In this document: in pieces, positions 20,363-45,989 of the stretch
Layout of the letters: each line of letters starts with the position of its first letter
Numbering within the stretch: position 1 is the stretch's first letter
From: a bacterium CG10_46_32
Lineage (GTDB): Bacteria; Patescibacteriota; Patescibacteriia; UBA2169
DNA length: 64,000 bases
Assembly (NCBI GenBank): GCA_001889965.1
Contig: MOEI01000006.1
Coordinates: 17,494 to 81,493, forward strand
Direction: 5' to 3'
Notes under the pieces: model-generated
What the model was told of the DNA's origin: nothing
The model's input: only the letters and a program-made list of their open reading frames with translations
Database searches by the model: none
Translations under genes and position numbers: made by a program

Positions 20363-20371
20363 ATAGAAGAC

Positions 20372-21839: not shown

Positions 21840-21846
21840 GAGATAT

Positions 21847-25169: not shown

Positions 25170-26165
25170 ATGAACACCATGAACACACTCAAAGACAAAA
25201 CCATTTTAATTACCGGCGGCACAGGTTCGTTTGGTAAGAATTTTATACGATTTTTACTGGACCAATCGGAAGTAAAAAAAATTATTGTATTCAGCCGTGA
25301 CGAACTTAAACAGTCGGAAATGCAGCGCGAGATTCAAGATGTCCGATTACGTTTTTTTCTGGGGGATGTTCGTGATTTGGAGCGACTTAGGCGCGCGTTT
25401 TTTGAAGTTGATGTTGTGGTCCATGCCGCTGCGCTCAAACAGGTGCCTACGCTTGAGTATAATCCGTTTGAGGCGGTAAAAACCAACATCATGGGAACCC
25501 AGAACGTTATTGACGCGGCCATTGATTTGGGGGTTGAAAAAGTGGTATTGATTTCAACCGATAAAGCCGCGCAACCCATTAATTTATATGGTTCCACTAA
25601 GCAGTGCGCGGAAAAATTGTTCGTGGCCGGCAATTCGTACGCTGCCGGGCGTACGCGTTTTAGCTGTGTGCGATATGGAAATGTCATTGGAAGTCGAGGC
25701 AGTATTATTGAGATGTTGTTGCGGGAGAAAGATGCGCGCGAGGTGACAGTTACCGACGAGGGCATGACTAGGTTTTGGCTTTCTTTGGACGAAAGTTTCA
25801 AGTTGGTATGTTTCGCGCTTGAGCATATGGTTGGTGGAGAAATTTTTATACCGAAGGATATTCCCAGCATGCGCATGGGTGACGTATTTGCCGCGCTTGC
25901 TCCGAATGCTAAAAAGAAAATTATCGGCATCCGACCCGGAGAAAAGATGCACGAGGTACTATTGACCGAAGAAGAAGCACGCCGCGCTGTGGTGTTGGGA
26001 AAGTATTTTGTTGTGTTGCCCGAATATCATCACGCAGTCAGCATGGAGAAGTTTGAGCCATACAGGGCACAAGGGGAAACATTGCCCGATGGTTTTTCTT
26101 TTCGGAGCGATACAAATACTTTGCAAATGAGCAAGGAAGACCTGTGCGCCGTGGCGCAAAAATAA
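25170..26165 (+). CDS. pseB: UDP-N-acetylglucosamine 4,6-dehydratase (PseB/FlaA1-type short-chain enzyme)
   Basis: ILITGGTGSFGKNF Rossmann motif, YGSTK catalytic motif and about 331 aa. It sits next to a PseC-like transaminase. Confidence 0.75.
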   Translation: MNTMNTLKDKTILITGGTGSFGKNFIRFLLDQSEVKKIIVFSRDELKQSEMQREIQDVRLRFFLGDVRDLERLRRAFFEVDVVVHAAALKQVPTLEYNPFEAVKTNIMGTQNVIDAAIDLGVEKVVLISTDKAAQPINLYGSTKQCAEKLFVAGNSYAAGRTRFSCVRYGNVIGSRGSIIEMLLREKDAREVTVTDEGMTRFWLSLDESFKLVCFALEHMVGGEIFIPKDIPSMRMGDVFAALAPNAKKKIIGIRPGEKMHEVLLTEEEARRAVVLGKYFVVLPEYHHAVSMEKFEPYRAQGETLPDGFSFRSDTNTLQMSKEDLCAVAQK

Positions 26166-26168
26166 TTT

Positions 26169-27278
26169 ATGATACCCTACGCACGACAACATATTAGTCA
26201 GGACGACATTGCGGCGGTTGCTTCCGCACTTCGTTCGGATTGGCTCACCCAAGGTCCTCAAGTTGCTGTGTTTGAAAAGGCTTTGGCTTTGTACTGCGGT
26301 GTCAAGTACGTGGTTGCTGTTTCTAACGGGACGGCCGCGTTGCATATAGCATACCTTGCGGCCGGCATTGTCAGCGGAGATGAGGCTATCACAACTCCAA
26401 ACACGTTTGTCGCAACTACTAATATGCTTTTGGCTGTGGGTGTTAAGCCCGTGTTTTCAGATATCCGTCTAGATACGTATAACCTGAACCAGGAGGAAAT
26501 TGAAAAGCATATTACTAAAAAGACCAAAGTAATCGTGCCGGTGCATTTTGCCGGGCAGTCGTGTGACATGTCCGCCATTAGGTCAATTGCCAAAAAGCAC
26601 AAGCTCTTGGTCATCGAAGATGCCTGCCATGCACTAGGTGGGCAATATAGGCAGAAAAAAATCGGCAGTTGCGCGTATTCGGATATGGCGGTGTTTAGCT
26701 TCCATGCTATTAAATCAATTACCACGGCGGAAGGTGGCGCAGTGCTTACAAATAATAAAAAGTTTTATGAAAAAATGCTGCGCGTGCGGAGCCATGGAAT
26801 CCATAAAGACAAGAGCGGATTTAATGTGATGTCTGAGTTTGGGTACAACTACCGGCTGACAGAGTTACAGGCGGCCCTAGGCTTGTCGCAACTTAAGCAG
26901 TTAAATCGTTTTATTGCGGCTCGACGCAAGGTTGCACGAGCATACCAGGTCGCGCTTGAAGGCATTCCAGGAATCATAGCGCCCACGGAGCTGGATCAGA
27001 ACACTTCTGCATGGCACCTGTACGTTATCCGAACCAAGAAAGCATCCGACCGATTGCCGCTGTATCGGCATTTGCAACAATCCGGGATTGGCATCAATTT
27101 TCATTATCCGGCAGTGTACAGCCATCCCTACTATAAAAAATTGGGTTTTAAAGGGCGTCAGTGTCCTCATATGGAGTTGTACGGCAAGACAGCAATTACT
27201 TTGCCGATGCATGTTTCTGTTTCCGAGCGCGATATTAAAACTATTGCTCAAGCTATCAAATTGTATTTTAACGTATGA
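26169..27278 (+). CDS. pseC: DegT/DnrJ/EryC1/StrS-family PLP aminotransferase (PseC-like)
   Basis: N-terminal pattern typical of sugar aminotransferases and the SFHAIKSITTAEGG Lys motif. Confidence 0.75.
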   Translation: MIPYARQHISQDDIAAVASALRSDWLTQGPQVAVFEKALALYCGVKYVVAVSNGTAALHIAYLAAGIVSGDEAITTPNTFVATTNMLLAVGVKPVFSDIRLDTYNLNQEEIEKHITKKTKVIVPVHFAGQSCDMSAIRSIAKKHKLLVIEDACHALGGQYRQKKIGSCAYSDMAVFSFHAIKSITTAEGGAVLTNNKKFYEKMLRVRSHGIHKDKSGFNVMSEFGYNYRLTELQAALGLSQLKQLNRFIAARRKVARAYQVALEGIPGIIAPTELDQNTSAWHLYVIRTKKASDRLPLYRHLQQSGIGINFHYPAVYSHPYYKKLGFKGRQCPHMELYGKTAITLPMHVSVSERDIKTIAQAIKLYFNV

Positions 27279-28393
27279 GAGTGTGTAAAAAATGCATTCA
27301 GCCGGACACCAGGCCAGGCATACGGTTCGATGAAAAAGGTGTTTGTCCGCCCTGTCGTTTTTCTGAAGTGCACGAAAAAATTAATTGGAAAAAACGACGC
27401 ACAGAACTTGAAAAACTTGCGGATTTTGGCAGGAGCCAGAATGTCTCGGGTTATGATTGTATTGTATCGGTCAGTGGAGGAAAAGACAGCATGCGGCAGG
27501 CTCTGTATATACGTGATGAATTAAGAATGAAGCCGTTGCTAGTATCATGCGCCTATCCTCCTGAGCATGTAACTGAACGGGGCGTGTATAATCTTGCGAA
27601 CCTTATTGAGATTGGTTTTGACTGCATTACCGCGACTCCAAATCCGCAGGCGTGGAAACAAATGGTAAAGGCTGGATTTTATCAGCATGGCAACCTTTTA
27701 AAATCATGTGAAATGGCTCTGTATATTACCGCGCCGAAAGTTGCCATTGCGTATCATATTCCTTTGATTTGTTTGGGCGAGAACCCCGCAATCACTATCG
27801 GCGCTTTAGAGGTTGGTTCCGTAACCGGAGACGCTAACCGCATGAAGCGTTCCAATACTTTGGCGGGCGGCCCGGAATCCGTCAAAACAAAAGACATTAC
27901 TGAACGCGATTTGTATTGGTACCACTACCCTAGTGACGACGAAATGTCCTGGGCGGGCATGAAGATTTTTTATCTTGGATATTATGTTAAGGATTTTAAT
28001 AAATTTAAAAATGCCTCTTTTTCAATCAAGCATGGGCTGGAAGTGCGTAAGGACACGCCGGCGAATACGGGCAACTATTATAATTTTGAATCCCTTGATA
28101 ATGACTTTTCTTTAATCAACCAGATGCTTAAATATTTCAAATATGGGTTTGGCCGAATTACGGATCAACTTTCCGAAGCAATTCGGCTTGGTATGATGAC
28201 CCGAGATCGAGCCATTGTAATCGCAAAAAGATACGATGGTGCATGTTCGGATGTATATATTAAACGTTTCTGCAAGTACATAGGCATTACTCAGAAAGAA
28301 TTTTGGCGGGTCGCTGATTTGTATCGGAATCGCGAGATTTGGGAAAAAGACAAAAAAGGCGCCTGGCATATTAAGCCCGCATATCAGTTATGA
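27275..28393 (+). CDS. N-acetyl sugar amidotransferase (WbpG/PseA-like PP-loop ATP pyrophosphatase)
   Basis: CxxC zinc ribbon (CKKC...CPPC) and the PP-loop SVSGGKDS. HisH/HisF homologues lie downstream. Confidence 0.7.
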   Translation: MRVCKKCIQPDTRPGIRFDEKGVCPPCRFSEVHEKINWKKRRTELEKLADFGRSQNVSGYDCIVSVSGGKDSMRQALYIRDELRMKPLLVSCAYPPEHVTERGVYNLANLIEIGFDCITATPNPQAWKQMVKAGFYQHGNLLKSCEMALYITAPKVAIAYHIPLICLGENPAITIGALEVGSVTGDANRMKRSNTLAGGPESVKTKDITERDLYWYHYPSDDEMSWAGMKIFYLGYYVKDFNKFKNASFSIKHGLEVRKDTPANTGNYYNFESLDNDFSLINQMLKYFKYGFGRITDQLSEAIRLGMMTRDRAIVIAKRYDGACSDVYIKRFCKYIGITQKEFWRVADLYRNREIWEKDKKGAWHIKPAYQL

Positions 28394-29013
28394 AGAATAC
28401 AATTGTTATAATTGATTACGGAGTCGGCAATGTTCGTTCTGTAAAAAATGCACTTTCGTCTTTGGGGTATACTACTGTAATTTCGCAAGAAAAACGGGAT
28501 ATACAGGGGGCGGCATGTGTAGTGTTGCCGGGAGTCGGGGCATTTGCAGAAGGAATGAAAAATTTAAAAGCGTTGGGCCTTTTGCCTATTTTACATGATG
28601 CGGCTATAAAAAATAAAAAGCCTTTTTTGGGGATTTGCCTGGGCATGCAGCTTTTGGCTGAATCGTCGGAAGAGGGTGGGGTGCATGCCGGCCTCGGATA
28701 TATTCCCGGGCACGTGGTTCGGTTTCCAGAAAAGAAAACGCCTCGAATTCCGCATGTAGGCTGGAATACGGTTTCCGTATCAAAAACATACCCCTTGTTT
28801 GGAGATTTTGAAGCAGGAGCGCATTATTATTTTGATCACAGTTTTTATTTTAACGCGCCTAAAAAACATGTCTTGGCAACGTGCGAGTACGGAATCCAAT
28901 TTCCCGCCGCGGTTGGATTTGGCAATATTTACGGCGTGCAGTTCCATCCAGAGAAAAGTCAAGCAAACGGATTAAAGCTGTTTAGAAGTTTTTTTAAGAG
29001 CCACAACCTTTAA
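28390..29013 (+). CDS. hisH: Imidazole glycerol phosphate synthase HisH-like glutamine amidotransferase subunit
   Basis: IDYGVGNVRSV, GVGAF, GICLGMQ and the His/Glu triad region. Confidence 0.8.
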   Translation: MKNTIVIIDYGVGNVRSVKNALSSLGYTTVISQEKRDIQGAACVVLPGVGAFAEGMKNLKALGLLPILHDAAIKNKKPFLGICLGMQLLAESSEEGGVHAGLGYIPGHVVRFPEKKTPRIPHVGWNTVSVSKTYPLFGDFEAGAHYYFDHSFYFNAPKKHVLATCEYGIQFPAAVGFGNIYGVQFHPEKSQANGLKLFRSFFKSHNL

Positions 29014-29017
29014 CCAT

Positions 29018-29887
29018 ATGCTTAAGAAAAGGATAATCGCATGCATGACCGTAAAAGACAACATAGTTGTCCAGAGTATTGGTTTTAAGCAATACTTGCC
29101 GGTTGGAAGACTTGCGGTAGCAATTGAATTCTTAAGCCAGTGGGGAATTGACGAAATTGCGATTCTGGATATTTCTGCCACGGCTGAAAAACGCGGTCCA
29201 AATTTCAAACTAATTGCCCAGGCCGCGAAAAAGTGTTTCACGCCTTTGGCCGTGGGTGGCGGCATTAGGGATATTGCTGACATGAGAAAATTGAACCAAT
29301 TAGGCGCGGAAAAAATTATTATAAATAATTTGGCTTTGAGTCAGGGCGAAATTATTAAAAAAGCTGCAGAGATTTTTGGCAGCCAATTTATAGTGGTTTC
29401 CATTGACGCAAAAAAAGTCGGCGGAACATATGAAGTATTTTCTGATGGCGGGCAAAAGCCAATCGGGCTGGAGGTTGGGGTTTTTGCTAGAAAAGTTGAA
29501 CAACTAGGCGCGGGCGAGATATTTTTGAATTCTATTGATCAAGATGGATCAAAAAAAGGCTTTGACTTGAGGCTCATTGATGCAGTTGTTTCCAAGGTTA
29601 CTGTTCCGGTTATAGCGTGTGGAGGCGCGGGCGAGCCTGATCATTTTAGGGAGGCGATCATCAAAACAAAAGCGTCCGCAATTGCGGCTGGAAACTTTTT
29701 TCATTTTACCGAACACAGCCCCATTGTGCTGAAATCGTTTTTAAAAAGTACGCGCGTTCCCGTGCGTCTCGAAACATATGCGCAGTACAATGACGCAACA
29801 TTCGACAGAAGCGGCCGGCTTCAGAAGCGGCCGGAGCAGTATTTGAATACGTTACGATTTACTTATTTGCCAGAGGAGATTATATGA
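29018..29887 (+). CDS. hisF: Imidazole glycerol phosphate synthase HisF-like cyclase subunit (WbuZ-type)
   Basis: RIIACMTV...GIDEIAILDISA...PLAVGGGIRD (TIM-barrel HisF motifs). Confidence 0.75.
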   Translation: MLKKRIIACMTVKDNIVVQSIGFKQYLPVGRLAVAIEFLSQWGIDEIAILDISATAEKRGPNFKLIAQAAKKCFTPLAVGGGIRDIADMRKLNQLGAEKIIINNLALSQGEIIKKAAEIFGSQFIVVSIDAKKVGGTYEVFSDGGQKPIGLEVGVFARKVEQLGAGEIFLNSIDQDGSKKGFDLRLIDAVVSKVTVPVIACGGAGEPDHFREAIIKTKASAIAAGNFFHFTEHSPIVLKSFLKSTRVPVRLETYAQYNDATFDRSGRLQKRPEQYLNTLRFTYLPEEII

Positions 29888-31140
29888 GATATTGTACTCG
29901 ATGTTTATATCCAGAAAATCATCCGCTCAATATTACATTTGACGAGCATGGCGTGTGCAGTGGCTGCCACGTGCACGAAGAAAAAGATAAGCTCAACTGG
30001 AAGCAGCGGTCAAAAAAACTGGGTGATATTTTGTACAGTTATACTACAAAATCAGGCAAAAGCTACGATTGCATTATTCCAGTTTCAGGTGCGCGCGATT
30101 CTTATTTTATTGTTCATACCATTAAGAATGTATATAAAAAAAATCCATTGCTTGTCACCTATAATAAACAATACAACACTGCTCTGGGTATCAGGAATTT
30201 GGCCTATTTAAAAACGCTTTTTGGGTGCGACATGCTCACGCTCACCGTAAACCCTGATGCTGTGAAAAAAATCACCAGGCGCACGCTACAAAAAATGGGC
30301 AGCATGTACTGGCATTGCCTGGCCGGCACTACGGCGTATCCTGTGCAGACTGCAGTTCGGTTTAAAATTCCCCTTATTATATGGGGAGCGCATCAGGGGT
30401 GCGATCAGGTTGGCATGTTTTCGCATATGGATGAGGTGGAAATGACGCACAAGTACCGTAAAGACCATGATCTTATGGGATATGAGGCTGAAGATTTGAT
30501 TGGCGGCGGCGTCACCAAAGAAGATGTGCGGCCGTTTGTGTACCCTTCGGATAAAGAAATCGAAAAGGTCGGAGTGCGCGGCATCTATCTTTCCAACTAT
30601 ATCCGCTGGGATTCTAAAAAACAGCACGAAGACATGATAGCGCAGTACGGTTACGAAACAGCCTACCAAGAGAGAACGTTTGATACATATAATGACGTGG
30701 ATTGCTTTAACTATTCCAGTGTGCATGATTATATTAAATTTTTAAAGCACGGTTATGGAAAAGTTACTGATCATGCATCCAGGGAAATCCGTCTCAAGCG
30801 TCTTACGCGCGAGCAGGGGATTGATTTGGTCAAAAAGTATCAGAACCTGAAGCCAAGTAAAAAATCGTTATCCTTGTTTCTGAAATGGGTTGGTATGAAT
30901 AAAAAAGATTTTTATAAATCCATTGACGCATTTCGTTCTTCTGTGGTCTGGGAAAAGTCGGGAATGGCCTGGAAACTCAAGGATTCTATAGTGTGCCATG
31001 CTGGCGACGAAGGTGTTGATTCTGTCCGTCTGAGAAAGAAAGGTCGTTGTGAATTTAAATTGACCAAGCCCAAGAAAACATTAAAAGATGATACATATAC
31101 CCTGCTCGGCCGCGGCTGGGCAGATGATTGGAAACAGTAA
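29884..31140 (+). CDS. Second N-acetyl sugar amidotransferase (WbpG/PseA-like), paralog of 27275-28393
   Basis: CTRC...CSGC zinc ribbon and the PP-loop IIPVSGARDS. Same domain order as the upstream paralog. Confidence 0.65.
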   Translation: MRYCTRCLYPENHPLNITFDEHGVCSGCHVHEEKDKLNWKQRSKKLGDILYSYTTKSGKSYDCIIPVSGARDSYFIVHTIKNVYKKNPLLVTYNKQYNTALGIRNLAYLKTLFGCDMLTLTVNPDAVKKITRRTLQKMGSMYWHCLAGTTAYPVQTAVRFKIPLIIWGAHQGCDQVGMFSHMDEVEMTHKYRKDHDLMGYEAEDLIGGGVTKEDVRPFVYPSDKEIEKVGVRGIYLSNYIRWDSKKQHEDMIAQYGYETAYQERTFDTYNDVDCFNYSSVHDYIKFLKHGYGKVTDHASREIRLKRLTREQGIDLVKKYQNLKPSKKSLSLFLKWVGMNKKDFYKSIDAFRSSVVWEKSGMAWKLKDSIVCHAGDEGVDSVRLRKKGRCEFKLTKPKKTLKDDTYTLLGRGWADDWKQ

Positions 31141-31141
31141 T

Positions 31142-32053
31142 ATGAAAAAGATTCGCACAGCAATAATTGGATTAGGAAACATCGCTCATGGATATGACGA
31201 TATCGCGAGCGTAAAAAAACGGTTAACGTATCCGACACACGTAAGTGTGCTTAAGCAGGACAAGCGGTTTGTGCTTGTTGCGGCAAGCGATGCAAGCGCG
31301 CGCCAGAGAGATATTTTTAAGAAAAAAGTTTCCAAAGAAGTGGTGCTCTATGCTGATTATCGTGCCATGCTTAATAAAGAAAAGATCGATTTGATGGTTG
31401 TTGCAGTGCCGACTGATTTACACCTAAAAGTGTGTTCAGTGGCTCTTGCTGCAGGCATTAAGTATATACTTTGCGAAAAGCCTATGGTGAGCACTGTGGC
31501 TGAAGCTAAAAAGTTATTAGCACTCGTAAAGCGCTATGCTGGGCATATTATGGTTAACTATCAGCGATCATACAGTGCGGATACTCAAAAGTTTATGAGC
31601 GTTGTGGAGAAAAAAAAGCGCGGTCGGCTTGTGTTTGCAACGGTACAGTACTCGGGTGGAATTTTTAACACTGCCACGCACATGATTCATTTAGTGGAAA
31701 AAATGTTTGGCCCTATTCAAAAGATTTGTAGCATTGCTGCTTCTGTTTGCGAACAGCGGGATCCGAATATCAGTTTTACGGCATTTGGCCGCGGGTTTGA
31801 AATAGTATTTAAAGGAATTAATAATTCTGTCGGGCAAATTTTTGAAATTGATATGCAGTTTACCAAAAAGAACATTACGCTGCACGGAGATTTTTTTGCT
31901 CAGACCAGTATGCGGGATGTATACGAGAGTGCATATCAATTTATTACGCGGCGCAAAAAACCGGTTGCGGATATGTTTTCGTCTGTCCATGCGCTCGCGG
32001 TTGCCGAAAAAGCGCTTGCATCCGCAAAGAACGGTAAAACAATAATCATATGA
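31142..32053 (+). CDS. Gfo/Idh/MocA-family NAD(P)-dependent oxidoreductase
   Basis: N-terminal Rossmann IRTAIIGLGNIAHGY and the EKP motif (CEKPMVSTVAEA). I chose the ATG at 31142. Confidence 0.75.
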   Translation: MKKIRTAIIGLGNIAHGYDDIASVKKRLTYPTHVSVLKQDKRFVLVAASDASARQRDIFKKKVSKEVVLYADYRAMLNKEKIDLMVVAVPTDLHLKVCSVALAAGIKYILCEKPMVSTVAEAKKLLALVKRYAGHIMVNYQRSYSADTQKFMSVVEKKKRGRLVFATVQYSGGIFNTATHMIHLVEKMFGPIQKICSIAASVCEQRDPNISFTAFGRGFEIVFKGINNSVGQIFEIDMQFTKKNITLHGDFFAQTSMRDVYESAYQFITRRKKPVADMFSSVHALAVAEKALASAKNGKTIII

Positions 32054-34265: not shown

Positions 34266-34954
34266 AAACTGGAGAACAGGTATTGGCTATTATTATCGCA
34301 CGCGGAGGCTCTAAATCCATTCCGCGGAAGAACGTGTTGTCATTGCATGGCAAGCCGCTGGTTGCGTGGCCTATTGATTTAGCAACATCGGTTGATCGTG
34401 TTGATCGTATTGTCGTTTCTACAGATGATGATGAAATTATGGATATTGCCAAGCAATATGGTGCAGAGGTTCCATTTAAGCGTCCTGCAAAACTCGCACA
34501 AGATGAAACAGAAACATTGCCGGTAGTGCAGCATTGCTTGAGTTATTTTTTTGAAAAAGAGCACTATAGGCCAGGCATTGTACTCCTTTTATATCCAACG
34601 GCTCCGTTTCTTAAAAAAGCGCGCATAGAGAAGGCTTTAGACTTATTTGAACAGAAGCAGTGTAATAGTGTCATGAGTATCGTTGAGGATTGGGGAAGGT
34701 TTTGGAGGCTAGATGAATTCTCTGGACGGTATGTTCCACTACATCCAGAGAAACGGGTTAATAGGCAGTATTATACACCCCTTTACCGTGAAGATGGCGC
34801 AGTGTATTTTAATCGATATGATGTTATTATGAAGAAAGGTGCTATTATCGATGAGGCGAATGTTGAGTTTTTGGTAATGGAAGAAGGAGAAAATATTGAT
34901 ATTGATGAGCCTCAAGATTTTAAGCAAGCTGAGCGTAAAAAAATTTCCTCATAG
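34259..34954 (+). CDS. Acylneuraminate (nonulosonate) cytidylyltransferase (NeuA/PseF/LegF family)
   Basis: IIIARGGSKSIPRKN motif of CMP-NeuAc synthetases. Length is 231 aa. Confidence 0.8.
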   Translation: MLKTGEQVLAIIIARGGSKSIPRKNVLSLHGKPLVAWPIDLATSVDRVDRIVVSTDDDEIMDIAKQYGAEVPFKRPAKLAQDETETLPVVQHCLSYFFEKEHYRPGIVLLLYPTAPFLKKARIEKALDLFEQKQCNSVMSIVEDWGRFWRLDEFSGRYVPLHPEKRVNRQYYTPLYREDGAVYFNRYDVIMKKGAIIDEANVEFLVMEEGENIDIDEPQDFKQAERKKISS

Positions 34955-34955
34955 T

Positions 34956-36014
34956 ATGAAATATATTACCATTAGAACTCCAAAAGCAGTGCGAAAAATC
35001 GGTCCACACGAACCTGTATTTATTATTGCTGAGCTTTCTGGAAATCATAACCAATCTTACGCCAAGGCTGAAAAATTAATTGATGCAGCGGCCAAGGCGG
35101 GTGTTGATGCCATAAAATTACAAACATACACAGCAGATACGTTAACTATTGATTCGGATAAAAAATATTTTTGCATCACTTCTGGTAAATGGAAAGGGCA
35201 GACGCTTTATCAGTTATATCAAAAGGCATACACCCCATGGGAGTGGCAGCCAAGACTCAAAAAGTATGCAGAAAAAAAGGGTTTGGTTTTATTCTCGACT
35301 CCTTTTGATGTGAGTGCAGTTGATTTTTTGGAAAAAATGCGCGTGTCACTTTATAAAGTTTCGTCGTTTGAGATTGGGGATATTCCATTGCTTAAAAGAA
35401 TCGGAACAACAAAAAAACCTGTTATTATTTCTCGTGGTATGGCTTCGGTTTCAGAAATTACGCTTGCTGTTAAAGCGCTTAAGGCGAGCGGCGCACCTCA
35501 GGTGGCGGTGCTGCACTGCATAAGTTCGTACCCAGCAGAACCAGAAGAAATGAACCTTGCAACCATTCCGGATATTACAAAAAAATTCAATGTTATTTCG
35601 GGGCTTTCAGATCATACGATTGGAACGAGCAGCGCGATTGCAGGTGTTGCTTTAGGTGCATCAATTATCGAAAAGCATATTACTCTCAAGCGGTCTGATG
35701 GAGGTCCTGATGCAGCATTTTCTCTTGAACCTCAAGAGTACACAGAATTAGTTGCCGCAATTCGGGATACGGAAAAAGCCATAGGATTACCATCGTACCA
35801 AATCGGAAAAAAAGAATCTCAAAATTTCGCATTTAGAAAATCAATATTTGTAATTAAAGATATCCCAAAAGGTTCTTTGTTTACTAAAGAAAATATAAAA
35901 ATAATTCGCCCGGGCCAGGGATTGCCTCCAAAGTATTGGGAGCGTATTTTAGGAAAGCAATCCAAGAGGAGTATAAATCGAGGCACTCCGCTTAATAGGC
36001 GCGATGTGGGATAG
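34956..36014 (+). CDS. N-acetylneuraminate synthase family (NeuB/PseI/LegI)
   Basis: PVFIIAELSGNHNQS...AGVDAIKLQTY...LSDHT motifs and a C-terminal SAF domain. ATG at 34956. Confidence 0.85.
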   Translation: MKYITIRTPKAVRKIGPHEPVFIIAELSGNHNQSYAKAEKLIDAAAKAGVDAIKLQTYTADTLTIDSDKKYFCITSGKWKGQTLYQLYQKAYTPWEWQPRLKKYAEKKGLVLFSTPFDVSAVDFLEKMRVSLYKVSSFEIGDIPLLKRIGTTKKPVIISRGMASVSEITLAVKALKASGAPQVAVLHCISSYPAEPEEMNLATIPDITKKFNVISGLSDHTIGTSSAIAGVALGASIIEKHITLKRSDGGPDAAFSLEPQEYTELVAAIRDTEKAIGLPSYQIGKKESQNFAFRKSIFVIKDIPKGSLFTKENIKIIRPGQGLPPKYWERILGKQSKRSINRGTPLNRRDVG

Positions 36015-36487
36015 TGCGCATGCAATATACTCAGCAACACAGTACCATTCGTCCTATAATGCCAGAAGACGCTAAGCGTGTATGGGAAATTCGCAATCAC
36101 CCATCTGCTCGCTCGCATTCGGGAAATCCGGAGGCTATTTCTTATCAGCAGCATGCATCTTGGTTTGCAAATAAGTATTTTAGCGGCCTGGACAATACAG
36201 CGTTTGTGCTCGTCGTTGATGCGGGGCAGGTTGTTGGATATTGTCGGTTTGATTGCAATAAAGAACAGGGCGGTTATATTGTTTCTATTGCTATCGATTC
36301 TGATTTTCAGGGCAAAGGCTTTGGGCATGCATTATTGCGTGGCGCGTTGGATCAATATGCGCAGGGAAAAGTGATTTTTGCAGAAATTCAGAAAGATAAC
36401 ATTGCTTCTGTTCATTTGTTTAAAAAAAATGGATTTTCTATAGAAAGTGAAGATGAAAAAAAATATTATCTTTTGTTGAGAATGTAG
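36014..36487 (+). CDS. GNAT N-acetyltransferase, PseH-like
   Basis: VWEIRNHPSARSHS (PseH-like) and the GNAT motif A QGKGFGHALL. Length is 157 aa. Confidence 0.6.
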   Translation: MRMQYTQQHSTIRPIMPEDAKRVWEIRNHPSARSHSGNPEAISYQQHASWFANKYFSGLDNTAFVLVVDAGQVVGYCRFDCNKEQGGYIVSIAIDSDFQGKGFGHALLRGALDQYAQGKVIFAEIQKDNIASVHLFKKNGFSIESEDEKKYYLLLRM

Positions 36488-36488
36488 T

Positions 36489-37901
36489 ATGTCTAAAGCG
36501 CAAAAAACAATCTTCATCGTCGTGACCCGCGGGTTTATTATCCGAAACATTCTGCGGTCTGGCACTCTTGCATTGCTTAAAAAAGCTGGTTGGCGCGTGG
36601 TGATATTTTTTGATGTCGCAGAAGTTCCTGCGCACTTGCGCCGTGAGTTTGAGGACGAGCAGGTGAGTGTGCACGGGATGCGCGTATCTGTTGCCCGGCC
36701 GCACCGATTATTTTTACGGCTGAGAAAGTATCTTCTCTCAACAAGCTCAACCAAGATTTTGGTGGATTTCCGACAAGGGAGCAAGGATAGACAAAAGTTC
36801 CGCGAAGGATTTTTACCTAAAAAATCTTCGCTTGCAAGCCAGACGCAAAAGCTAAGCATGTCTGTATTGAGCACCATCCCTTTACTTAAGCCTATATACC
36901 GATGGATTGAATATCATATGTTTTCCGAAAAAAATCCCGTGATCCAGCGTTATTTTGACGAATACCAGCCGAACGAAGTGTTTGGCACTTCGGTTGTTTC
37001 TTCTTTGGATATTGCCTTTATGAAAGAGGCTCGCCGCAGAAACATAGTTACCATCGCGATGCCAAAAACCTGGGATAATATTATGAACGGTTATTTCCGT
37101 TTTACCCCGGATTATTTTTTGGTGCATAACGAAATGGCACGTGGCTTAACAGCGCAGTATCAGCATATGCCAAAAGAAAAGATGTTTGTGGTTGGTATGC
37201 CGCAGTTTGACTGGTACCGCAAGGAGGGCGTTCTTAATTCGCGTGCGGAACATTGGAAGAGCAAGGGTCTAGATCCGAATCAAGCGGTCATCTTTTTTGG
37301 TTCAGCGGGTATTTGGGCGGCGCATGACCACGCTATTCCGGAATTAATTTACGGATGGATAGAGCACGGTGAGCTCGCAAAACCGTGCCAGTTATTTTTG
37401 CGTCCGCATTTTAGTAATGTACATGATGACATGTTTAAAAATCTTCGAGGCAAAAAAGGGATTGCTATTGATGATTATAAGATGGTGAATACGTTTAGTG
37501 ATAATTGGGATCCTACAGTTCAGGATACGATTGATTTTACTAATTCCGTTGTATATTGTGATATTATGATAAATATCGGTTCAACGCTTTCTCTGGACGC
37601 ATCCTGCGTTGATCGGCCCATATTAAATCCCGCATTCGGGTGCTCGTTTCAAGGGGGGGAAGATGTGACCTATCCGTACCAGTATGGGGCGGACCACTAT
37701 CAGTGGGTGCTTTCTGAGAACGCAACTAAGCTCTCTTTTAACCCAAAAGAGCTTAAGCAGCAACTGAATGAATATCTTGTGCATCCGGAAGAAGAACAAG
37801 AAGAACGAAAAAATCTTATTAACAAGCTTTGTTATCGCGTAGACGGGCTTGCATCACAGAGGATTGTTGATGCCATTAACAGCAGTGTACGTACTGCGTA
37901 A
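36489..37901 (+). CDS. GT-B-fold transferase with HP-like motif (TagF/CDP-glycerol glycerophosphotransferase-like or sialyl/CMP-sugar transferase-like); paralog of 47997-49400
   Basis: CQLFLRPHFSNVHDD and VGMPQFDWY are shared with the paralog. Length is 470 aa. Confidence 0.4.
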   Translation: MSKAQKTIFIVVTRGFIIRNILRSGTLALLKKAGWRVVIFFDVAEVPAHLRREFEDEQVSVHGMRVSVARPHRLFLRLRKYLLSTSSTKILVDFRQGSKDRQKFREGFLPKKSSLASQTQKLSMSVLSTIPLLKPIYRWIEYHMFSEKNPVIQRYFDEYQPNEVFGTSVVSSLDIAFMKEARRRNIVTIAMPKTWDNIMNGYFRFTPDYFLVHNEMARGLTAQYQHMPKEKMFVVGMPQFDWYRKEGVLNSRAEHWKSKGLDPNQAVIFFGSAGIWAAHDHAIPELIYGWIEHGELAKPCQLFLRPHFSNVHDDMFKNLRGKKGIAIDDYKMVNTFSDNWDPTVQDTIDFTNSVVYCDIMINIGSTLSLDASCVDRPILNPAFGCSFQGGEDVTYPYQYGADHYQWVLSENATKLSFNPKELKQQLNEYLVHPEEEQEERKNLINKLCYRVDGLASQRIVDAINSSVRTA

Positions 37902-38589
37902 TCATATATATAAGAAGAAAAATATTATAGCTATTATTCCGGCGCGGGGTGGATCCAAAACTATCCCCAATAAAAACCTGGCCCCACTCGGCGGCAAGCC
38001 ATTGATGAGTTACAGTATTGCGCAAGCGCAGCAGTCTCGTTATGTGGATATGATTGTTGTGTCGAGTGACAGCGAAGCTATTCTTGCGGAGGCAAAACAG
38101 CTCGGCGCAGAGGCTATTCGCAGGCCTAAGCAGATGAGTGGCGACACTTCCAAAATGGATCTTGCATTAAGGCATGCGTTGCTGCAGCTCGATTCCATTA
38201 AAGGCTATGTGCCGGATTATATTGTGCTTCTGCAACCCACGAGCCCGTTGCGGAGTGTGGCTACTATTGATCGCGCTATTGTCGCTTTTGTGGATAATGC
38301 AAAAAAATTCGATTCGCTTATTGGTTTGTGCGCAATAGAGTCCAAGATCGGGCACATTAAAAATGGCCGCTATATAGCACTCAATAAGATGAATATGCAG
38401 CGTCAGCAACTTAAGCATATGTACCAGGAGTGCGGCACTATTTTTGTGTTTAAGCCGAGTCGAATTTTAAAGAAGCAATCACTCTATGGCGCGCGCGTAA
38501 TGCCATTTATTGTTGAAAAGAGGCACGAAGCTTTAGATATTAATGACAGCCATGATATGAATATGGCGAATTATTTTTTAACCATATGA
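37849..38589 (+). CDS. Second acylneuraminate cytidylyltransferase (NeuA/LegF-like)
   Basis: IIAIIPARGGSKTIPNKN motif. The exact start is uncertain because the ORF's N-terminus overlaps the upstream gene by about 50 nt, and a later or non-ATG start is possible. Confidence 0.75.
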   Translation: MHHRGLLMPLTAVYVLRNHIYKKKNIIAIIPARGGSKTIPNKNLAPLGGKPLMSYSIAQAQQSRYVDMIVVSSDSEAILAEAKQLGAEAIRRPKQMSGDTSKMDLALRHALLQLDSIKGYVPDYIVLLQPTSPLRSVATIDRAIVAFVDNAKKFDSLIGLCAIESKIGHIKNGRYIALNKMNMQRQQLKHMYQECGTIFVFKPSRILKKQSLYGARVMPFIVEKRHEALDINDSHDMNMANYFLTI

Positions 38590-39620
38590 ATGAAATCAAT
38601 ATAGGTAGTAGAAAAATAGGGCCGCGCCATGCGCCGTTCGTTATTGCGGAGATCGGCATTAACCATGAGGGAAGCATGGCAAAAGCAAAGCGCATGATTC
38701 GCGATGCCGCAAAGGCGGGGGCGGAGTGCGTTAAATTCCAAGCGCACGTGATAAGTGATGAAATGGTTCCTGTCGCAAAAAAAGTCATCCCAGGAAATGC
38801 CAAGGAGTCCATTTGGGACATTATGTCGCGGTGCGCGTTTTCCGAAAAGCAAGATCATGAGCTTAAGGCATACACCGAAAAATTAGGCATGCTGTATCTT
38901 TCTACGCCGTTTTCGCGCGCAGGCGCAGATCAACTCCATAAGATGCAAGTGAAAGCCTATAAAATTGGTTCCGGTGAATGCAACAACTATCCGCTTATCG
39001 AACATATTGCACGGTTTAAAAAACCAGTCATCCTTTCCACAGGTATGAATGATATTGCAAGCGTAAAAAAGAGCGTGGCAATTTTACGCACACACAGTGT
39101 TCCGTTTGCACTTTTACATTGCACAAGTATGTACCCAACGCCGTACGACAAAGTGCGTCTTGGTGCGCTTGCGGATTTAGCGAAAGCGTTTCCAGATGCG
39201 GTTGTTGGACTTTCGGATCATTCGTTTGGTAACTATACGTCATTTGGCGCCATTCCTCTTGGCGCATCAATTTTAGAAAAACATTTTACGTCGTATAAAG
39301 AGTGGCCTGGCCCGGATGTGTCTATTTCTATTGATCCGGCAGAGCTTAAAGAATTAATACAGGGCTCTCGAGCTATTCATGCGGCTTTGGGCGGCAAAAA
39401 AGATATTCTAAAAGAGGAGCAGCCTACTATTAATTTTGCCTATGCATGCGTGGTAACAACCAAGCCCATTGCCAAAGGTGAAAAGTTTACTCAGGACAAC
39501 CTCTGGGTAAAGCGTCCGGGTACCGGGGAAATTAAGGCAATTGAGTATAAAAAAATTATTGGGAAAAAAGCAAAACGAGGTATTAAAGCCGATATGCAAC
39601 TTAAACGGAAGGATATATAG
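38586..39620 (+). CDS. Second N-acetylneuraminate synthase family protein (NeuB/LegI-like)
   Basis: PFVIAEIGINHEGS...AGAECVKFQAH...LSDHS and a C-terminal SAF domain. Confidence 0.85.
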   Translation: MNEINIGSRKIGPRHAPFVIAEIGINHEGSMAKAKRMIRDAAKAGAECVKFQAHVISDEMVPVAKKVIPGNAKESIWDIMSRCAFSEKQDHELKAYTEKLGMLYLSTPFSRAGADQLHKMQVKAYKIGSGECNNYPLIEHIARFKKPVILSTGMNDIASVKKSVAILRTHSVPFALLHCTSMYPTPYDKVRLGALADLAKAFPDAVVGLSDHSFGNYTSFGAIPLGASILEKHFTSYKEWPGPDVSISIDPAELKELIQGSRAIHAALGGKKDILKEEQPTINFAYACVVTTKPIAKGEKFTQDNLWVKRPGTGEIKAIEYKKIIGKKAKRGIKADMQLKRKDI

Positions 39621-39624
39621 TACT

Positions 39625-40782
39625 ATGTCAAATAAAAAGCGAACCGTTTTATTTATTAGCGAACGAAGGGCAGACTATAGTCGCTTAAAGCCCATTATGA
39701 AAGCCGTTCAAAAGAGCACAAAGCTTAATTTGAAGCTTGTGGTAACTGGCACGCACCTACTTAAGAATTTTGGAGAAACCAAGCGCGTTGTCGAGAAAGA
39801 TGGATTCTGGATAGATGCGAAAGTTCCTATGTTTAAACCTCGCGGAGCAGACGATGGGGCTGCTATGGTAGAGGCAATGGCGCGAGTACTTGGCGGCCTG
39901 CCAAAGGTGTACAAAAAACTCAAGCCAGACATTGTGTTCTGCGGATTTGATTTAGGTGCGCACCTTGCGGCTGCGATTACGGCAATGCACATGAATATCC
40001 ACGTGGCGCACATACAGGGCGGCGAACGTTCCGGCACTATAGATGAAGTGTTGCGTCATGCGTGCACTAAATTCTCACATATTCATTTTGTCGCAACCGA
40101 GAAAAGCCGAAAGCGTGTTATCAAGCTCGGAGAAGATTCGAAGTATGTATACAATGTAGGGAGCCCAAGTTTGGATACTATCAAATCTATATCTTATCCC
40201 AGTAAAAAAATTATATTTAAAAAATATCATCTTGATCCAGAAAAAAAACTTATTATTTTTCTGCAGCATCCAGTAACCACGGAAGTGGATGAGGTGGTTG
40301 TTCAGATACACCAGACCATAGACGCTGTGCATACTGTTAACCGAAAGTATGGAACTCAAGCGCTGGCCATTTACTCAAATAACGATGCCGGAGGCAAGCG
40401 CATTGTTGCATATCTCAAGAAATCGGGAATTGCAGTCCTGCCGCACGTGGTGTATGAAGATTTTTTGCGACTTTTAAAACATGCGAGCGTGCTGGTTGGA
40501 AATTCCTCAACAGGCATCCACGAGGCTCCTTCGTTTGGATTGCCAACTGTGAATGTTGGTACTCGGCAGCAATTTAGAGAACGCGGGAAAAATGTTATCG
40601 ATACGCCTAATAATAAAGGAAAAATCTTACAGGCAATTGAAAAATCATTATTTGACAAAAAGTATATAAAAATGGTAGAATCTGGTTCTAATCCGTACGA
40701 TAATGGAGATACCGCAAAACAAGTGGTTCACATTCTTGAAAGCGAAACACTGCCCTCAATTCAGAAAGTTATTACCTATTAA
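39625..40782 (+). CDS. UDP-N-acetylglucosamine 2-epimerase, hydrolysing type (NeuC/LegG-like)
   Basis: VLFISERRADYSRLKPI, HIQGGERSGTIDE and VGNSSTGIHEAP motifs. ATG at 39625. Confidence 0.8.
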   Translation: MSNKKRTVLFISERRADYSRLKPIMKAVQKSTKLNLKLVVTGTHLLKNFGETKRVVEKDGFWIDAKVPMFKPRGADDGAAMVEAMARVLGGLPKVYKKLKPDIVFCGFDLGAHLAAAITAMHMNIHVAHIQGGERSGTIDEVLRHACTKFSHIHFVATEKSRKRVIKLGEDSKYVYNVGSPSLDTIKSISYPSKKIIFKKYHLDPEKKLIIFLQHPVTTEVDEVVVQIHQTIDAVHTVNRKYGTQALAIYSNNDAGGKRIVAYLKKSGIAVLPHVVYEDFLRLLKHASVLVGNSSTGIHEAPSFGLPTVNVGTRQQFRERGKNVIDTPNNKGKILQAIEKSLFDKKYIKMVESGSNPYDNGDTAKQVVHILESETLPSIQKVITY

Positions 40783-40793
40783 TTACTACGCAT

Positions 40794-41792
40794 ATGCACG
40801 AGCAATTTAAAGACAAAGTTATTCTTATTACTGGAGGGACAGGAACTATTGGATCTGAATTAGTTCAGCAGCTTTTAAAATGCCACCCAAAACAGGTGCG
40901 TATTTTGTCTCGTGAAGAGGGAAAGCAGTATGAGCTTTTGGAGCGGCTTAAGTACCCTAAAAATTTACGGCTTTTAATTGGTGATATCCGAGATCGTGAC
41001 CGCATTGATTATGCGTTTAAAGACGTGGATATCGTGCTGCATACCGCAGCCATGAAGCAGGTTCCGCTCTGCGAATACAATCCGGCTGAGGCGGTAAAAA
41101 CAAATATTGTTGGCAGCCAAAATGTGATTGACGCAAGCCTCAAGAATCAAGTGGAAAAGGTTATTGCGATTTCCACAGACAAGGCAGTATATCCAACGAA
41201 CGTTATGGGAACTTCCAAGCTCATGATGGAAAAAATGTTTATTAACGCCAATTGGACATCTGGTAAAGCGGTAACCAAATTTGCATGTGTACGTTTCGGA
41301 AATGTGGCATGGGCGCGCGGTAGCGTGCTTCCGCTTTGGAAGAAGCAGGCTGAAAATGAAAGTCGCATTAATATTACTAATCCAAACATGACGCGTTTTA
41401 TGATGTCTATTGAGCAGGCAGTTAATCTTGTGCTGAAAGCCGTAGAGCTTGTGCAGGTTGGAGAAATTTTTGTTCTTAAAATGTCGTCCATCACAATTGG
41501 AGAGCTAGGAAATATGTTTACTGCAAAGTATTATCCGGATAAAAAAATTGCCATTTCAGTAAGCGGCGACCGCGTAGGGGATAAAATGCACGAAGAGTTG
41601 GTAGATGACAACGATCGGACAAGCTATATTCTTGAAGATAAAGATATGTATATTTTTGTTCCTCGTTTTTTAGAGCTTTACGGGGTTGAGCAAGATGTGC
41701 CACAGTATGCCGGATTTACAAAGATTGATACGATTGGGCGGTATTCATCCGATGAGCATATTAATTCAGAAAAAATTAAATCTATTGTGTAA
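40794..41792 (+). CDS. Second UDP-sugar 4,6-dehydratase (PseB/LegB-type short enzyme)
   Basis: ILITGGTGTIGSEL, MGTSK and about 332 aa. Paralog of 25170-26165. Confidence 0.7.
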   Translation: MHEQFKDKVILITGGTGTIGSELVQQLLKCHPKQVRILSREEGKQYELLERLKYPKNLRLLIGDIRDRDRIDYAFKDVDIVLHTAAMKQVPLCEYNPAEAVKTNIVGSQNVIDASLKNQVEKVIAISTDKAVYPTNVMGTSKLMMEKMFINANWTSGKAVTKFACVRFGNVAWARGSVLPLWKKQAENESRINITNPNMTRFMMSIEQAVNLVLKAVELVQVGEIFVLKMSSITIGELGNMFTAKYYPDKKIAISVSGDRVGDKMHEELVDDNDRTSYILEDKDMYIFVPRFLELYGVEQDVPQYAGFTKIDTIGRYSSDEHINSEKIKSIV

Positions 41793-41801
41793 GAGTTTTA
41801 T

Positions 41802-42842: not shown

Positions 42843-43150
42843 ATTCGTTTAGGGCTAAGCCGTATGATGGGCACAAGGTATTGTACAATAAGATTTTTAG
42901 CAAAGCTGAAATTAGTTACTGCTTAAACAAAAATGATAGCTACGCTAGTTTTGCGGGAAAGTTTTGCGCCAAAGAAGCCGTGATAAAAGCGTTTAAGCAT
43001 ACTAATCTTTTTGATATTATATCTGTTGAAATTATAAATAATGCAAACGGCGAACCCGAAGCGTTTACAAACGGAAATAAATTACATTGTTTTTTGTCGA
43101 TTTCACATACCAACGATCAAGCGCTCGCGTTCTGCGTGGCGTATGCGTAA
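42803..43150 (+). CDS. acpS: Holo-[acyl-carrier-protein] synthase (4'-phosphopantetheinyl transferase, AcpS type)
   Basis: GVGTDIEII...FAGKFCAKEAVIKA motifs. Length is 115 aa. Confidence 0.7.
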   Translation: MEILGVGTDIEIINSFRAKPYDGHKVLYNKIFSKAEISYCLNKNDSYASFAGKFCAKEAVIKAFKHTNLFDIISVEIINNANGEPEAFTNGNKLHCFLSISHTNDQALAFCVAYA

Positions 43151-43151
43151 T

Positions 43152-45983: not shown

Positions 45984-45989
45984 ATAACT

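Follow-up and report, generated by a model that had tools for sequence, protein, structure and literature searches.

Here we report an analysis of two gene sets for the biosynthesis of nonulosonic acids (NulO), the sialic-acid-like sugars, that lie in tandem on a 64,000-nucleotide stretch of contig MOEI01000006.1 from the patescibacterium CG10_46_32; this whole stretch is referred to below as the window. Almost the entire window, from about 260 to 60250, is a single train of genes on the + strand in which neighbouring stops and starts overlap; its GC content is ~0.43 throughout without a compositional break, and the same run of genes is also present on several metagenome contigs. The two sets occupy the central part of a ~60-kb locus in CG10_46_32 for a surface polysaccharide or glycoconjugate. 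Open reading frames (ORFs) of the window were assigned to families by profile scans with NCBIfam, using its equivalog cutoffs, and with Pfam. For the analysis of gene context, the window proteins were compared by local BLAST with 80 loci carrying a relative of the second synthase (NeuB2), where genes were called NeuC1-like at an identity of at least 55% and NeuC2-like at an identity of at least 45%, and further comparisons were made with the loci L085 (Propionivibrio dicarboxylicus), L086 (Leptospira yasudae), L087 (a 1-Mb metagenome contig), L088, L089, and L090. All genes named in an original prediction, which was made from the nucleotide sequence and had proposed the two sets, were recovered as intact + strand ORFs whose positions agree with the predicted ones exactly or to within a few codons, the candidate PseG being the one weak assignment among them. 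The family matches have E-values of 1e-34 to 1e-139, so that chance is not an issue.

Set 1 (25170-37901) is a pseudaminic-acid-type (Pse-type) pathway that is elaborated by extra tailoring. Three of its enzymes exceed the equivalog cutoffs, namely the inverting UDP-GlcNAc 4,6-dehydratase PseB (25170-26165, + strand; TIGR03589, 439 bits against a cutoff of 408), which retains the catalytic STDK...YGSTK (YxxxK) motif, the aminotransferase PseC (26169-27278, +; TIGR03588, 459 bits against 423), and the pseudaminic acid synthase PseI (34956-36014, +; TIGR03586, 463 bits against 340, and 324 bits with NeuB_NnaB), whose start was taken from gene calls on identical metagenome contigs. These scores rule out the alternative that PseB and PseC are generic sugar-nucleotide enzymes. 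The cytidine monophosphate (CMP)-nonulosonate synthetase 1 (34259-34954, +) belongs to the NeuA family by its PDB matches, has PseF as its top NCBIfam match (161 bits, cutoff 206), and is 65% identical to the gene at the equivalent place in L087. A 157-amino-acid GNAT protein (36014-36487, +; Pfam Acetyltransf_1/Acetyltransf_3), with 40 bits for the PseH model (cutoff 93), is regarded as a candidate PseH because it adjoins PseI. No NCBIfam or Pfam match to PseG/Glyco_tran_28_C was found among the window ORFs scanned. Thus, of the complete Pse-type pathway that had originally been suggested, the Pse character is borne out by PseB, PseC, and PseI, and the completeness is not. PseB, PseC, the GNAT in the PseH position, PseI, and the PseF-like synthetase would together yield a pseudaminic-acid backbone. 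The set resembles the Pse pathway of Helicobacter and Campylobacter (and the UDP route also present in Tannerella forsythia ATCC 43037) in the equivalog-level PseB, PseC, and PseI, in the YxxxK form of PseB, in the placement of PseI between the PseF-like synthetase and the small GNAT, and in the accompanying acetamidino-forming amidotransferases, as for Pse5Am derivatives. It differs from that pathway in lacking a canonical PseG (Glyco_tran_28_C), in the below-cutoff scores of PseH and PseF, in the two WbuX-type enzymes and the Gfo/DegT/GT-B trio inserted between PseC and PseF, and in having a transferase that is TagB-like rather than Maf-like.

Set 2 (37870-49400) is a pathway of the Neisseria meningitidis NeuB (NmNeuB) type joined to an N-acyl remodelling cassette. 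Its CMP-nonulosonate synthetase 2 (37870-38589, +) is a NeuA-like CTP_transf_3 protein with N. meningitidis NeuA as the top PDB match (1EYR, 89 bits); it passed no equivalog model and scored 118 bits with the PseF model (cutoff 206). The synthase NeuB2 (38586-39620, +) scored 382 bits with NeuB_NnaB (TIGR03569, cutoff 400) and 237 bits with the PseI model, and among solved structures it matched NmNeuB (1XUU) at 422 bits, SpsE at 176 bits, and PseI at 146 bits. In a global alignment NeuB2 is 56% identical to NmNeuB, and 19 of the 20 catalytic or substrate residues are identical, the exception being N184S. Segment 70-85 has been tied to C4-C6 specificity by Halsør et al. (PMC7371886); here NeuB2 reads VIPGNAKESIWDIMSR and NmNeuB reads VIPGNADVSIYEIMER, and the window PseI diverges. 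The term Neu-type, when applied to NeuB2, means that its sequence is NmNeuB-like and is not proof of N-acetylmannosamine (ManNAc) specificity. NCBIfam contains no LegI-specific model, and a published large synthase phylogeny does not cleanly separate the neuraminic (Neu) from the legionaminic (Leg) type (PMC8208679). The NeuB2 clade, with 64-78% identity, spans Patescibacteria, Acidobacteriota, Geomonas, Bacillota, and archaea. In GenBank, NeuB2 (38586-39620) and several of its close homologues bear the name polyhydroxyalkanoate biosynthesis repressor PhaR, which is a propagated misannotation.

Two hydrolysing 2-epimerases belong to set 2, NeuC1 (39625-40782, +) and NeuC2 (46849-47997, +), with 379 and 399 bits, respectively, for TIGR03568 (cutoff 236). 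The top PDB match of NeuC1 is the epimerase domain of human GNE (223 bits), followed by Acinetobacter baumannii LegG at 185 bits. NeuC2, which had been predicted as a third NeuC standing apart from the sets, is present as described; it adjoins the acylation cassette, and the cassette of L088 likewise has a second NeuC-like gene beside its deacetylase. The set also contains a Polysacc_synt_2 4,6-dehydratase, named Dh2 here (40794-41792, +), in which, as in its orthologues, MGTSK stands in place of the YGSTK of PseB. This Met-for-Tyr (MxxxK) class is that of CapE, FnlA, and PglF. The PDB matches of Dh2 are Pen, CapE, FnlA, and FlaA1 at ~230-239 bits and PglF at 176 bits, and its score with the LegB model TIGR04180 is 78 bits (cutoff 475). 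The possibility that Dh2 is a second PseB is ruled out by its MxxxK, as opposed to YxxxK, motif and by its score of 312 bits with the PseB model, below the cutoff of 408. Set 2 is similar to the CMP-Neu5Ac pathway of N. meningitidis (SiaA/SiaC/SiaB) in its synthase, which shares 56% identity with SiaC, and in the adjacent hydrolysing NeuC and NeuA-family synthetase. In contrast to that pathway, the window has a second NeuC, an MxxxK 4,6-dehydratase within the operon, and a deacetylase/carrier-protein re-acylation cassette; NeuB2 falls just under the NCBIfam NeuB cutoff, and no polysialyltransferase accompanies it in the window.

The tandem arrangement of two NulO gene sets that are not orthologous to each other, as originally proposed, is upheld by the comparison of their paralogues, with identities of 35% for PseI and NeuB2, 32% for the two cytidylyltransferases, 40% for PseB and Dh2, and 32% for NeuC1 and NeuC2. 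Identity to N. meningitidis NeuB is 34.5% for PseI versus 56% for NeuB2. A recent duplication of one set is excluded because the synthases belong to different groups, and the identities of 31-40% between all paralogue pairs rule it out as well. Both sets are wider than first drawn, the genes at 27275-34265 and 41802-46835 having been left out.

Each set is directly followed by a TagB/TagF-like transferase with a GT-B fold. Transferase 1 (36489-37901, +; weak Glyphos_transf match) is a candidate Pse transferase, and transferase 2 (47997-49400, +; Glyphos_transf) is a candidate transferase for the second NulO. Both paralogues score 50 bits with the BFO_1060 family (cutoff 200), are 31% identical to each other, and have the RPH and STL..DA motifs in common; transferase 1 is 54% identical to the gene at the equivalent place in L087. 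The BFO_1060 family comprises genetically proven Tannerella transferases of Pse and Leg derivatives, which are encoded just downstream of the biosynthesis sets (PMC5420450). As with the Tannerella proteins Tanf_01245/TFUB4_00887, the window pair are TagB-like GT-B proteins of 440-470 residues whose genes come immediately after a CMP-NulO set, and each sugar type has its own paralogue; the family match is weak, however, the window motif is RPH instead of the published HP context, and the transferase activity is a prediction from sequence. That each transferase paralogue directly follows one set is, as far as gene context goes, the best reason to believe that the locus makes and uses two different CMP-sugars.

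Set 1 is also conserved elsewhere. Locus L087 has ten genes in the same order and with 41-73% identity, encoding the DUF4956 protein, the ABC exporter, the Capsule_synth-like protein Caps508, PseB, PseC, DegT, the GT-B protein, CMP-nonulosonate synthetase 1, PseI, and the TagB-like transferase, while the Gfo-family gene at the equivalent place is only 25% identical. Thereafter L087 carries a different cytidylyltransferase/synthase/NeuC module, the synthase of which is 37-38% identical to both window synthases. Judged from this comparison of gene order, set 1 has evolved as a unit, beside which the second set can be swapped as a cassette. The upstream border of set 1 is conserved too, and consists of a fused ATP-binding cassette (ABC) exporter of the MsbA/PglK-like type (21784-23640, +; HepA/MsbA/PglK-type NCBIfam matches) and the 508-amino-acid Caps508 (23640-25166, +; weak Pfam PF05159 match); this pair precedes PseB in L087 with 65% and 60% identity.

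Seven genes separate PseC from the PseF-like gene, four of them forming an acetamidino-type amidotransferase system and the other three a trio. The two WbuX-type N-acetyl-sugar amidotransferases (27275-28393 and 29884-31140, both +) score 313 and 338 bits with TIGR03573 (cutoff 203) and are 29% identical to each other. Between them are encoded a HisH glutaminase (28390-29013, +; 231 bits) and a HisF/WbuZ protein (29018-29887, +), whose scores of 261 bits with WbuZ, 243 bits with HisF, and 233 bits with AglZ/HisF2 are each just below the cutoff. Enzymes of the WbuX/PtmG type turn N-acetyl into acetimidoyl groups on the nonulosonates of Campylobacter and Legionella (PMC3766260), and the two WbuX copies with HisH and HisF would similarly convert N-acetyl into acetamidino groups on the set 1 sugar.

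The trio consists of a Gfo/Idh/MocA oxidoreductase (31088-32053, +; Pfam PF01408), a 433-amino-acid DegT-family aminotransferase (32050-33351, +), which is below all NCBIfam cutoffs, and a 305-amino-acid GT-B-fold protein (BK004_01365; 33348-34265, +) that belongs to no sequence family and has an AlphaFold 2 model with a pLDDT of 94. The nearest solved relatives of the DegT protein are 2-deoxy-scyllo-inosose aminotransferases (180-185 bits) and KdnA (172 bits), then WbpE (125 bits) and PseC (97 bits). The trio adjoins PseI-type synthases in the Propionivibrio (L085), Leptospira (L086), and L087 loci, and in the first two of these the DegT and GT-B genes are separated by an additional GNAT gene. 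For the 305-amino-acid protein, whose family has an invariant His-Pro, the fold matches are generic and include GT4 enzymes, a polysialyltransferase, MurG, and 2-epimerases, with PseG (3HBM) at rank 23. The proposal that this protein is PseG does not find support in a generic GT-B fold that comes with no sequence or PseG model match; and because the Propionivibrio locus holds a canonical PseG (PF04101) along with the trio, the protein is not simply PseG. As a weaker inference, the trio would act on the finished sugar acid, where a hydroxyl would be oxidised and then aminated to give a triamino derivative; alternatively, the GT-B protein might stand in for PseG. Oxidation and transamination of the finished sugar acid is favoured because the DegT protein is nearest to aminotransferases of free keto-cyclitols and of 3-deoxy-D-manno-octulosonic acid (Kdo). 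A WbpB/WbpE-like role of the Gfo/DegT pair in forming a 3-amino UDP-sugar is less favoured, as the DegT protein is nearer to the 2-deoxy-scyllo-inosose and Kdo aminotransferases than to WbpE and because amination at C3 of the hexose would block ring closure of the nonulosonate; it is possible that the pair makes a 3-amino sugar for a separate sugar. Compared with the formation of 8-amino-Kdo by KdnA/KdnB in Shewanella, the window has a DegT protein of the subgroup that acts on keto-sugar acids not bound to a nucleotide, together with an oxidoreductase; the latter is of the Gfo/Idh/MocA family and not a metal-dependent alcohol oxidase, and the putative substrate would have nine carbons. A 5,7,8-triamino nonulosonate of manno configuration is natural in Tenacibaculum maritimum (PMC3210612), and in Aeromonas group III flagellar glycosylation islands an uncharacterised Gfo/Idh/MocA protein, a GNAT, and a pyridoxal phosphate (PLP) transferase are encoded beside the pse genes (PMC7874193).

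The acylation cassette of set 2 lies between Dh2 and NeuC2, the latter following directly after the last gene of the cassette. It encodes a CE4 (NodB-type) deacetylase (41802-42842, +; Polysacc_deac_1, 58 bits; 40% identical to the L088 cassette gene), a 4'-phosphopantetheinyl transferase (PPTase; 42803-43150, +; ACPS, 62 bits), a stand-alone amino-acid adenylation (A) domain (43152-44687, +; TIGR01733, 380 bits against a cutoff of 317), an 85-amino-acid carrier protein with an SSLD motif (44671-44928, +; PP-binding, 19.5 bits, marginally under the cutoff of 20.8), a 356-amino-acid tandem-GNAT transferase (44913-45983, +; weak GNAT match; AlphaFold 2 model pLDDT of 91), and an S-adenosylmethionine-dependent methyltransferase (45990-46835, +; class I methyltransferase matches). 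All components of a loading module of the nonribosomal peptide synthetase (NRPS) type are therefore present, namely the adenylation domain, the carrier with its Ser site, and the PPTase. Among PDB entries, the adenylation domain best matches the second A domain of LgrA (that of module 2), a glycine-activating domain. The specificity positions of the window domain, read from the alignment as D-L-F-S-F-N-M-V-Q-K, keep Asp235 and form a bulky pocket; this suggests, at the level of sequence, that a small alpha-amino acid is loaded. The 356-amino-acid transferase belongs to a small family with 35 matches, and its tandem-GNAT fold is most like that of N-myristoyltransferases (E-value of 6e-15, TM score of ~0.55), a fold that acylates amines from acyl-pantetheine thioesters.

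The same cassette recurs in L088, the gene order of which is NeuC, hexapeptide acetyltransferase, DegT, Dh2-like dehydratase, HisF, HisH, deacetylase, second NeuC, methyltransferase, PPTase, A domain, carrier protein, transferase, and cytidylyltransferase; its cassette proteins are 40-54% identical to those of the window. In L089 the cassette occurs with two TagB-like transferases, a dehydratase, a NeuC, and a cytidylyltransferase, and in L090 a carrier-transferase fusion adjoins genes for an FkbH-type loader and a PPTase, along with a cytidylyltransferase-like ORF that is partial because the contig ends there; a methyltransferase is also found in all three cassettes. For both sets, we infer the substrates, the order of steps, and the final structures from such evidence. 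In set 2, the deacetylase would strip the N-acetyl group from a UDP-hexosamine precursor and free the amine, the tandem-GNAT transferase would re-acylate this amine with a small amino acid held as a carrier thioester, and the methyltransferase would then methylate the aminoacyl product, so that a 5-N-(methyl-aminoacyl) neuraminic-type sugar would result. That the remodelling takes place on the UDP-hexosamine, before hydrolysis, is suggested by gene position: in L088 the second NeuC-like gene comes after the deacetylase, and in the window NeuC2 comes after the methyltransferase. The cassette is like the D-alanylation system DltA/DltC and other stand-alone NRPS loading modules in its free-standing adenylation domain, small carrier, and dedicated PPTase, but its acceptor-side enzyme is a tandem GNAT of a small family instead of DltB/DltD or a condensation domain, and the context of the tandem-GNAT cassettes is always nonulosonate genes. 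Our literature search found no paper combining the terms nonulosonic, adenylation, and carrier protein. An acyl carrier protein and an AMP-dependent synthetase with no assigned function lie beside pse genes in the Aeromonas islands (PMC7874193), and the authors of the Tannerella work describe the enzymes of NulO N-acyl substitutions as unknown (PMC5378307).

A variant of the loading step is seen at 382-6003 of L090, where the carrier-fused tandem-GNAT homologue stands beside an FkbH_N loader, the PPTase, and a MaoC-dehydratase/short-chain dehydrogenase/reductase (SDR) protein. FkbH_N loaders form glyceryl-S-carrier protein, and this fusion module may supply the N-glyceroyl group of sugars like Pse5Am7Gra, which is known from Tannerella.

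The remaining part of set 2, the Dh2 branch, was analysed through its genomic context. The commonest context of the NeuB2 clade is NeuB, NeuC, and NeuA without a dehydratase. A NeuC2-like gene occurs within 4 kb of the synthase in 48 of the 80 related loci, and 47 of these 48 have this context, with a PseB/Dh2-type dehydratase in one and a DegT aminotransferase in nine. Among the ten NeuC1-like loci, such a dehydratase is found in nine and a DegT aminotransferase in three. Unusually, the window combines both NeuC types with a single synthase. In seven loci (L005, L008, L009, L010, L015, L016, and L036) the module comprises NeuB, NeuC1, an extended SDR of ~290 amino acids, Dh2, and NeuA; these modules have no internal DegT, and WbuX/HisH/HisF are often adjacent. 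In the window, and likewise in L007, the locus closest to it, NeuC1 and Dh2 have no SDR between them. The residue at NmNeuB position 74 is His in nine of the ten NeuC1-type loci (L005, L008-L010, L013, L015, L016, L027, and L036), and eight of these nine also carry the MxxxK dehydratase, whereas Asn is found in 68 of the 70 other loci as well as in NmNeuB, the window, and L007; one of the two exceptions to Asn74, L035, also has a Dh2-like gene. Position 74 is thus a candidate specificity switch for 6-deoxy substrates, and the window has a reductase-less, Asn74 variant of the NeuC1/dehydratase module. The Dh2 branch may lead to a 9-deoxy or 7-amino variant of the nonulosonate, or to a separate 6-deoxy-hexosamine.

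Taken together, the gene content, family membership, paralogy, and conservation of the modules elsewhere are observed here, and we consider it probable, though well short of certain, that they represent two independent CMP-NulO pathways, with a Pse backbone made by set 1 and a Neisseria-type sugar, modified by the re-acylation cassette, made by set 2. Two distinct CMP-nonulosonates are likely to be made because each set has its own cytidylyltransferase and its own trailing TagB-like paralogue, so that, of the two outcomes originally entertained, two products or a single highly derivatised one, the former is preferred. That both sets cooperate on one highly derivatised nonulosonate, or that one of them is redundant or inactive, would accord with the operon-like organisation of the genes in one long + strand unit with overlapping stops and starts, and accessory enzymes such as the amidotransferases and aminotransferases might conceivably be shared between the sets; but the two synthases, two cytidylyltransferases, and two dedicated transferases are all intact, with each pair only 31-35% identical, and L087 retains set 1 while exchanging the second set, which marks the sets as independent units and leaves this alternative very improbable. 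For the product of set 2, an N-acyl-neuraminic-type sugar is our tentative assignment, held at somewhat less than an even chance. Several points weigh against the combined model of a Pse-type set 1 and a Neu-type set 2. The missing PseG match, together with the presence of the GT-B candidate beside a canonical PseG in Propionivibrio, means that set 1 may depart from the standard Pse pathway, and the PseF and PseH scores are below their model cutoffs. In set 2, NeuC2 is slightly nearer to A. baumannii LegG, its top PDB match at 210 bits, than to GNE (183 bits), the cassette of L088 stands in a diamino (Leg- or Pse-like) context with a dehydratase, a DegT, and a hexapeptide acetyltransferase, and the NmNeuB-like synthase may act on a Leg precursor, as reported for Legionella NeuB.

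The last three points bear on a Leg-like, 5,7-diamino product of set 2, which the original prediction had named first, beside a Neu-like one, and which we regard as possible but doubtful. Here, the UDP-4-keto-6-deoxy sugar made by Dh2 would be aminated at C4 by the RfbH-like protein at 52063 or the 433-amino-acid DegT, acylated by the cassette or a GNAT, hydrolysed and epimerised by a NeuC, and then used by NeuB2 acting as LegI. The placement of the dehydratase directly after NeuC1 fits such a route, as do the proximity of NeuC2 to the solved LegG and the joining of a Dh2-like dehydratase, a DegT, and a hexapeptide acetyltransferase to the same acylation cassette in L088; moreover, the Leg dehydratase of Legionella lies outside the neuABC locus, in which NeuB is of the NeuB family (PMC3766260), and N7-alanyl Leg derivatives have been reported in Vibrio (PMC7371886). 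However, family scans revealed no C4 aminotransferase (LegC/PglE) and no N-acetyltransferase (LegH/PglD) in 37870-49400, no DegT protein of the window exceeded 242 bits with the LegC model (cutoff 420), and no hexapeptide acetyltransferase matched among the window ORFs scanned. A DegT gene flanks only 3 of the 10 related NeuC1/dehydratase loci, the 433-amino-acid DegT is tied to Pse-type sets elsewhere, and in the region of C4-C6 specificity NeuB2 has the same residues as NmNeuB. When set 2 is compared with the UDP-route Leg pathway of Legionella pneumophila and A. baumannii, set 2 likewise has a dehydratase, a hydrolysing 2-epimerase related to LegG, a NeuB-family synthase, and a cytidylyltransferase, and WbuX/PtmG-type amidotransferases and a methyltransferase are found near set 2; unlike that pathway, the window set has neither an aminotransferase nor a PglD/NeuD-type acetyltransferase, the specificity region of its synthase is Neu-like, and the Dh2 orthologues elsewhere pair with a reductase. 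The evidence does not demonstrate the legionaminic label. The pairing with a reductase suits another candidate product, a 5-amino-3,5,9-trideoxy nonulosonate (fusaminic-type) or 9-deoxy-Neu, formed by the dehydratase, a 4-reductase, NeuC1, NeuB2, and NeuA without amination at C7. The seven related loci with NeuB, NeuC1, SDR, Dh2, and NeuA have the logic of a 6-deoxy-N-acetylhexosamine pathway feeding a synthase, the covarying His74 supports a 6-deoxy substrate for these relatives, and a natural 5-acetimidoylamino-3,5,9-trideoxy nonulosonate occurs together with 6-deoxy-L-AltNAc in Fusobacterium nucleatum 25586 (PMC13014188). In the window itself, by contrast, as in L007, no SDR lies between NeuC1 and Dh2, the only SDR candidates are distant (50111 and 51101), and with Asn74 the synthase looks like one for a 6-hydroxy substrate (ManNAc); we therefore judge a 9-deoxy or fusaminic-like product of set 2 improbable. 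Fusaminic acid of F. nucleatum 25586 is the only natural trideoxy nonulosonate reported (PMC13014188; PMC7371886), and no study of its biosynthesis was found in our literature search.

The presence of multiple nonulosonate sets in one organism or locus is already known from Campylobacter, Leptospira, Moritella, and Aliivibrio. The new part of the locus is its accessory cassettes, which are uncharacterised and recur across uncultured lineages. We put forward, as a tentative proposal in which we have limited confidence, that they comprise three uncharacterised and widespread modules of NulO diversification: the re-acylation cassette, the Gfo/DegT/GT-B trio, and the NeuB(His74)/NeuC/SDR/MxxxK-dehydratase/NeuA module. 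If this is true, the first would be a genetic basis of N-aminoacyl, N-glyceroyl, and similar substituents, the second would aminate a hydroxyl of the finished Pse-type sugar to give a triamino nonulosonate like that of Tenacibaculum maritimum, and the third, which is common in Patescibacteria, would be a pathway to 3,5,9-trideoxy (fusaminic-type) nonulosonates. The comparison loci offer candidate genes for the one class of trideoxy nonulosonates known so far. Sialic-acid-like sugars shape the recognition of bacterial surfaces by phages, predators, and immune systems, and their N-acyl decorations, such as acetamidino, glyceroyl, aminoacyl, and hydroxybutyryl groups, are chemically well documented, while the enzymes responsible are largely unassigned. 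The locus offers candidate tailoring modules for these decorations, as modular cassettes common to uncultured groundwater lineages.

Outside the two sets, family scans showed that the locus encodes many GT4 and GT2 transferases, an AsnB-type amidotransferase, methyltransferases, and a NodU-like carbamoyltransferase, and a polyprenyl-phosphate glycosyl-phosphotransferase is encoded on the opposite strand at the window end. The non-hydrolysing epimerase WecB that had been predicted at 3329 is present (3329-4441; TIGR00236, 267 bits against a cutoff of 210). In the + strand segment 3329-8006 it is followed by a 570-amino-acid protein without a family and by the AsnB-type amidotransferase (480 bits), a glutamine-dependent enzyme that may convert a uronic acid into its amide. 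The NodU-like carbamoyltransferase lies within 14727-16379 (+); its presence, together with the AsnB-type enzyme and at least three methyltransferases, suggests a heavily decorated glycan. The genes just before the ABC exporter (17687-21839, +) encode an 891-amino-acid CotH-kinase/right-handed beta-helix protein, a VTC-domain polyphosphate-polymerase-like protein, and a DUF4956 membrane protein, the last of which is 73% identical to its counterpart at the equivalent place in L087.

Downstream of set 2, the segment 49429-53277 (+) encodes a GT2 transferase, two SDRs resembling CDP- and dTDP-glucose 4,6-dehydratases with scores below the cutoffs, and a PLP enzyme similar to RfbH (349 bits, cutoff 423), and has no nucleotidyltransferase gene nearby. 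In L007 an RfbH-like gene with 34% identity adjoins the NeuB2/NeuC1/Dh2 module. The SDR and RfbH-like genes of this segment could supply a reductase or an aminotransferase for the Dh2 branch. The glycan of the locus is probably sulfated: a 930-amino-acid fusion protein for the synthesis of 3'-phosphoadenosine 5'-phosphosulfate (PAPS) (54503-57295, +), preceded by a sulfotransferase (53284-54510; PF13469) and followed by CysQ (57549-58391), combines ATP sulfurylase and adenosine 5'-phosphosulfate (APS) kinase with an N-terminal pyruvate-kinase-like barrel (residues 4-346; 276 bits with TIGR01064). The joining of a pyruvate-kinase domain to PAPS synthase is unusual; phosphoenolpyruvate also serves as co-substrate for the two NeuB-family synthases.

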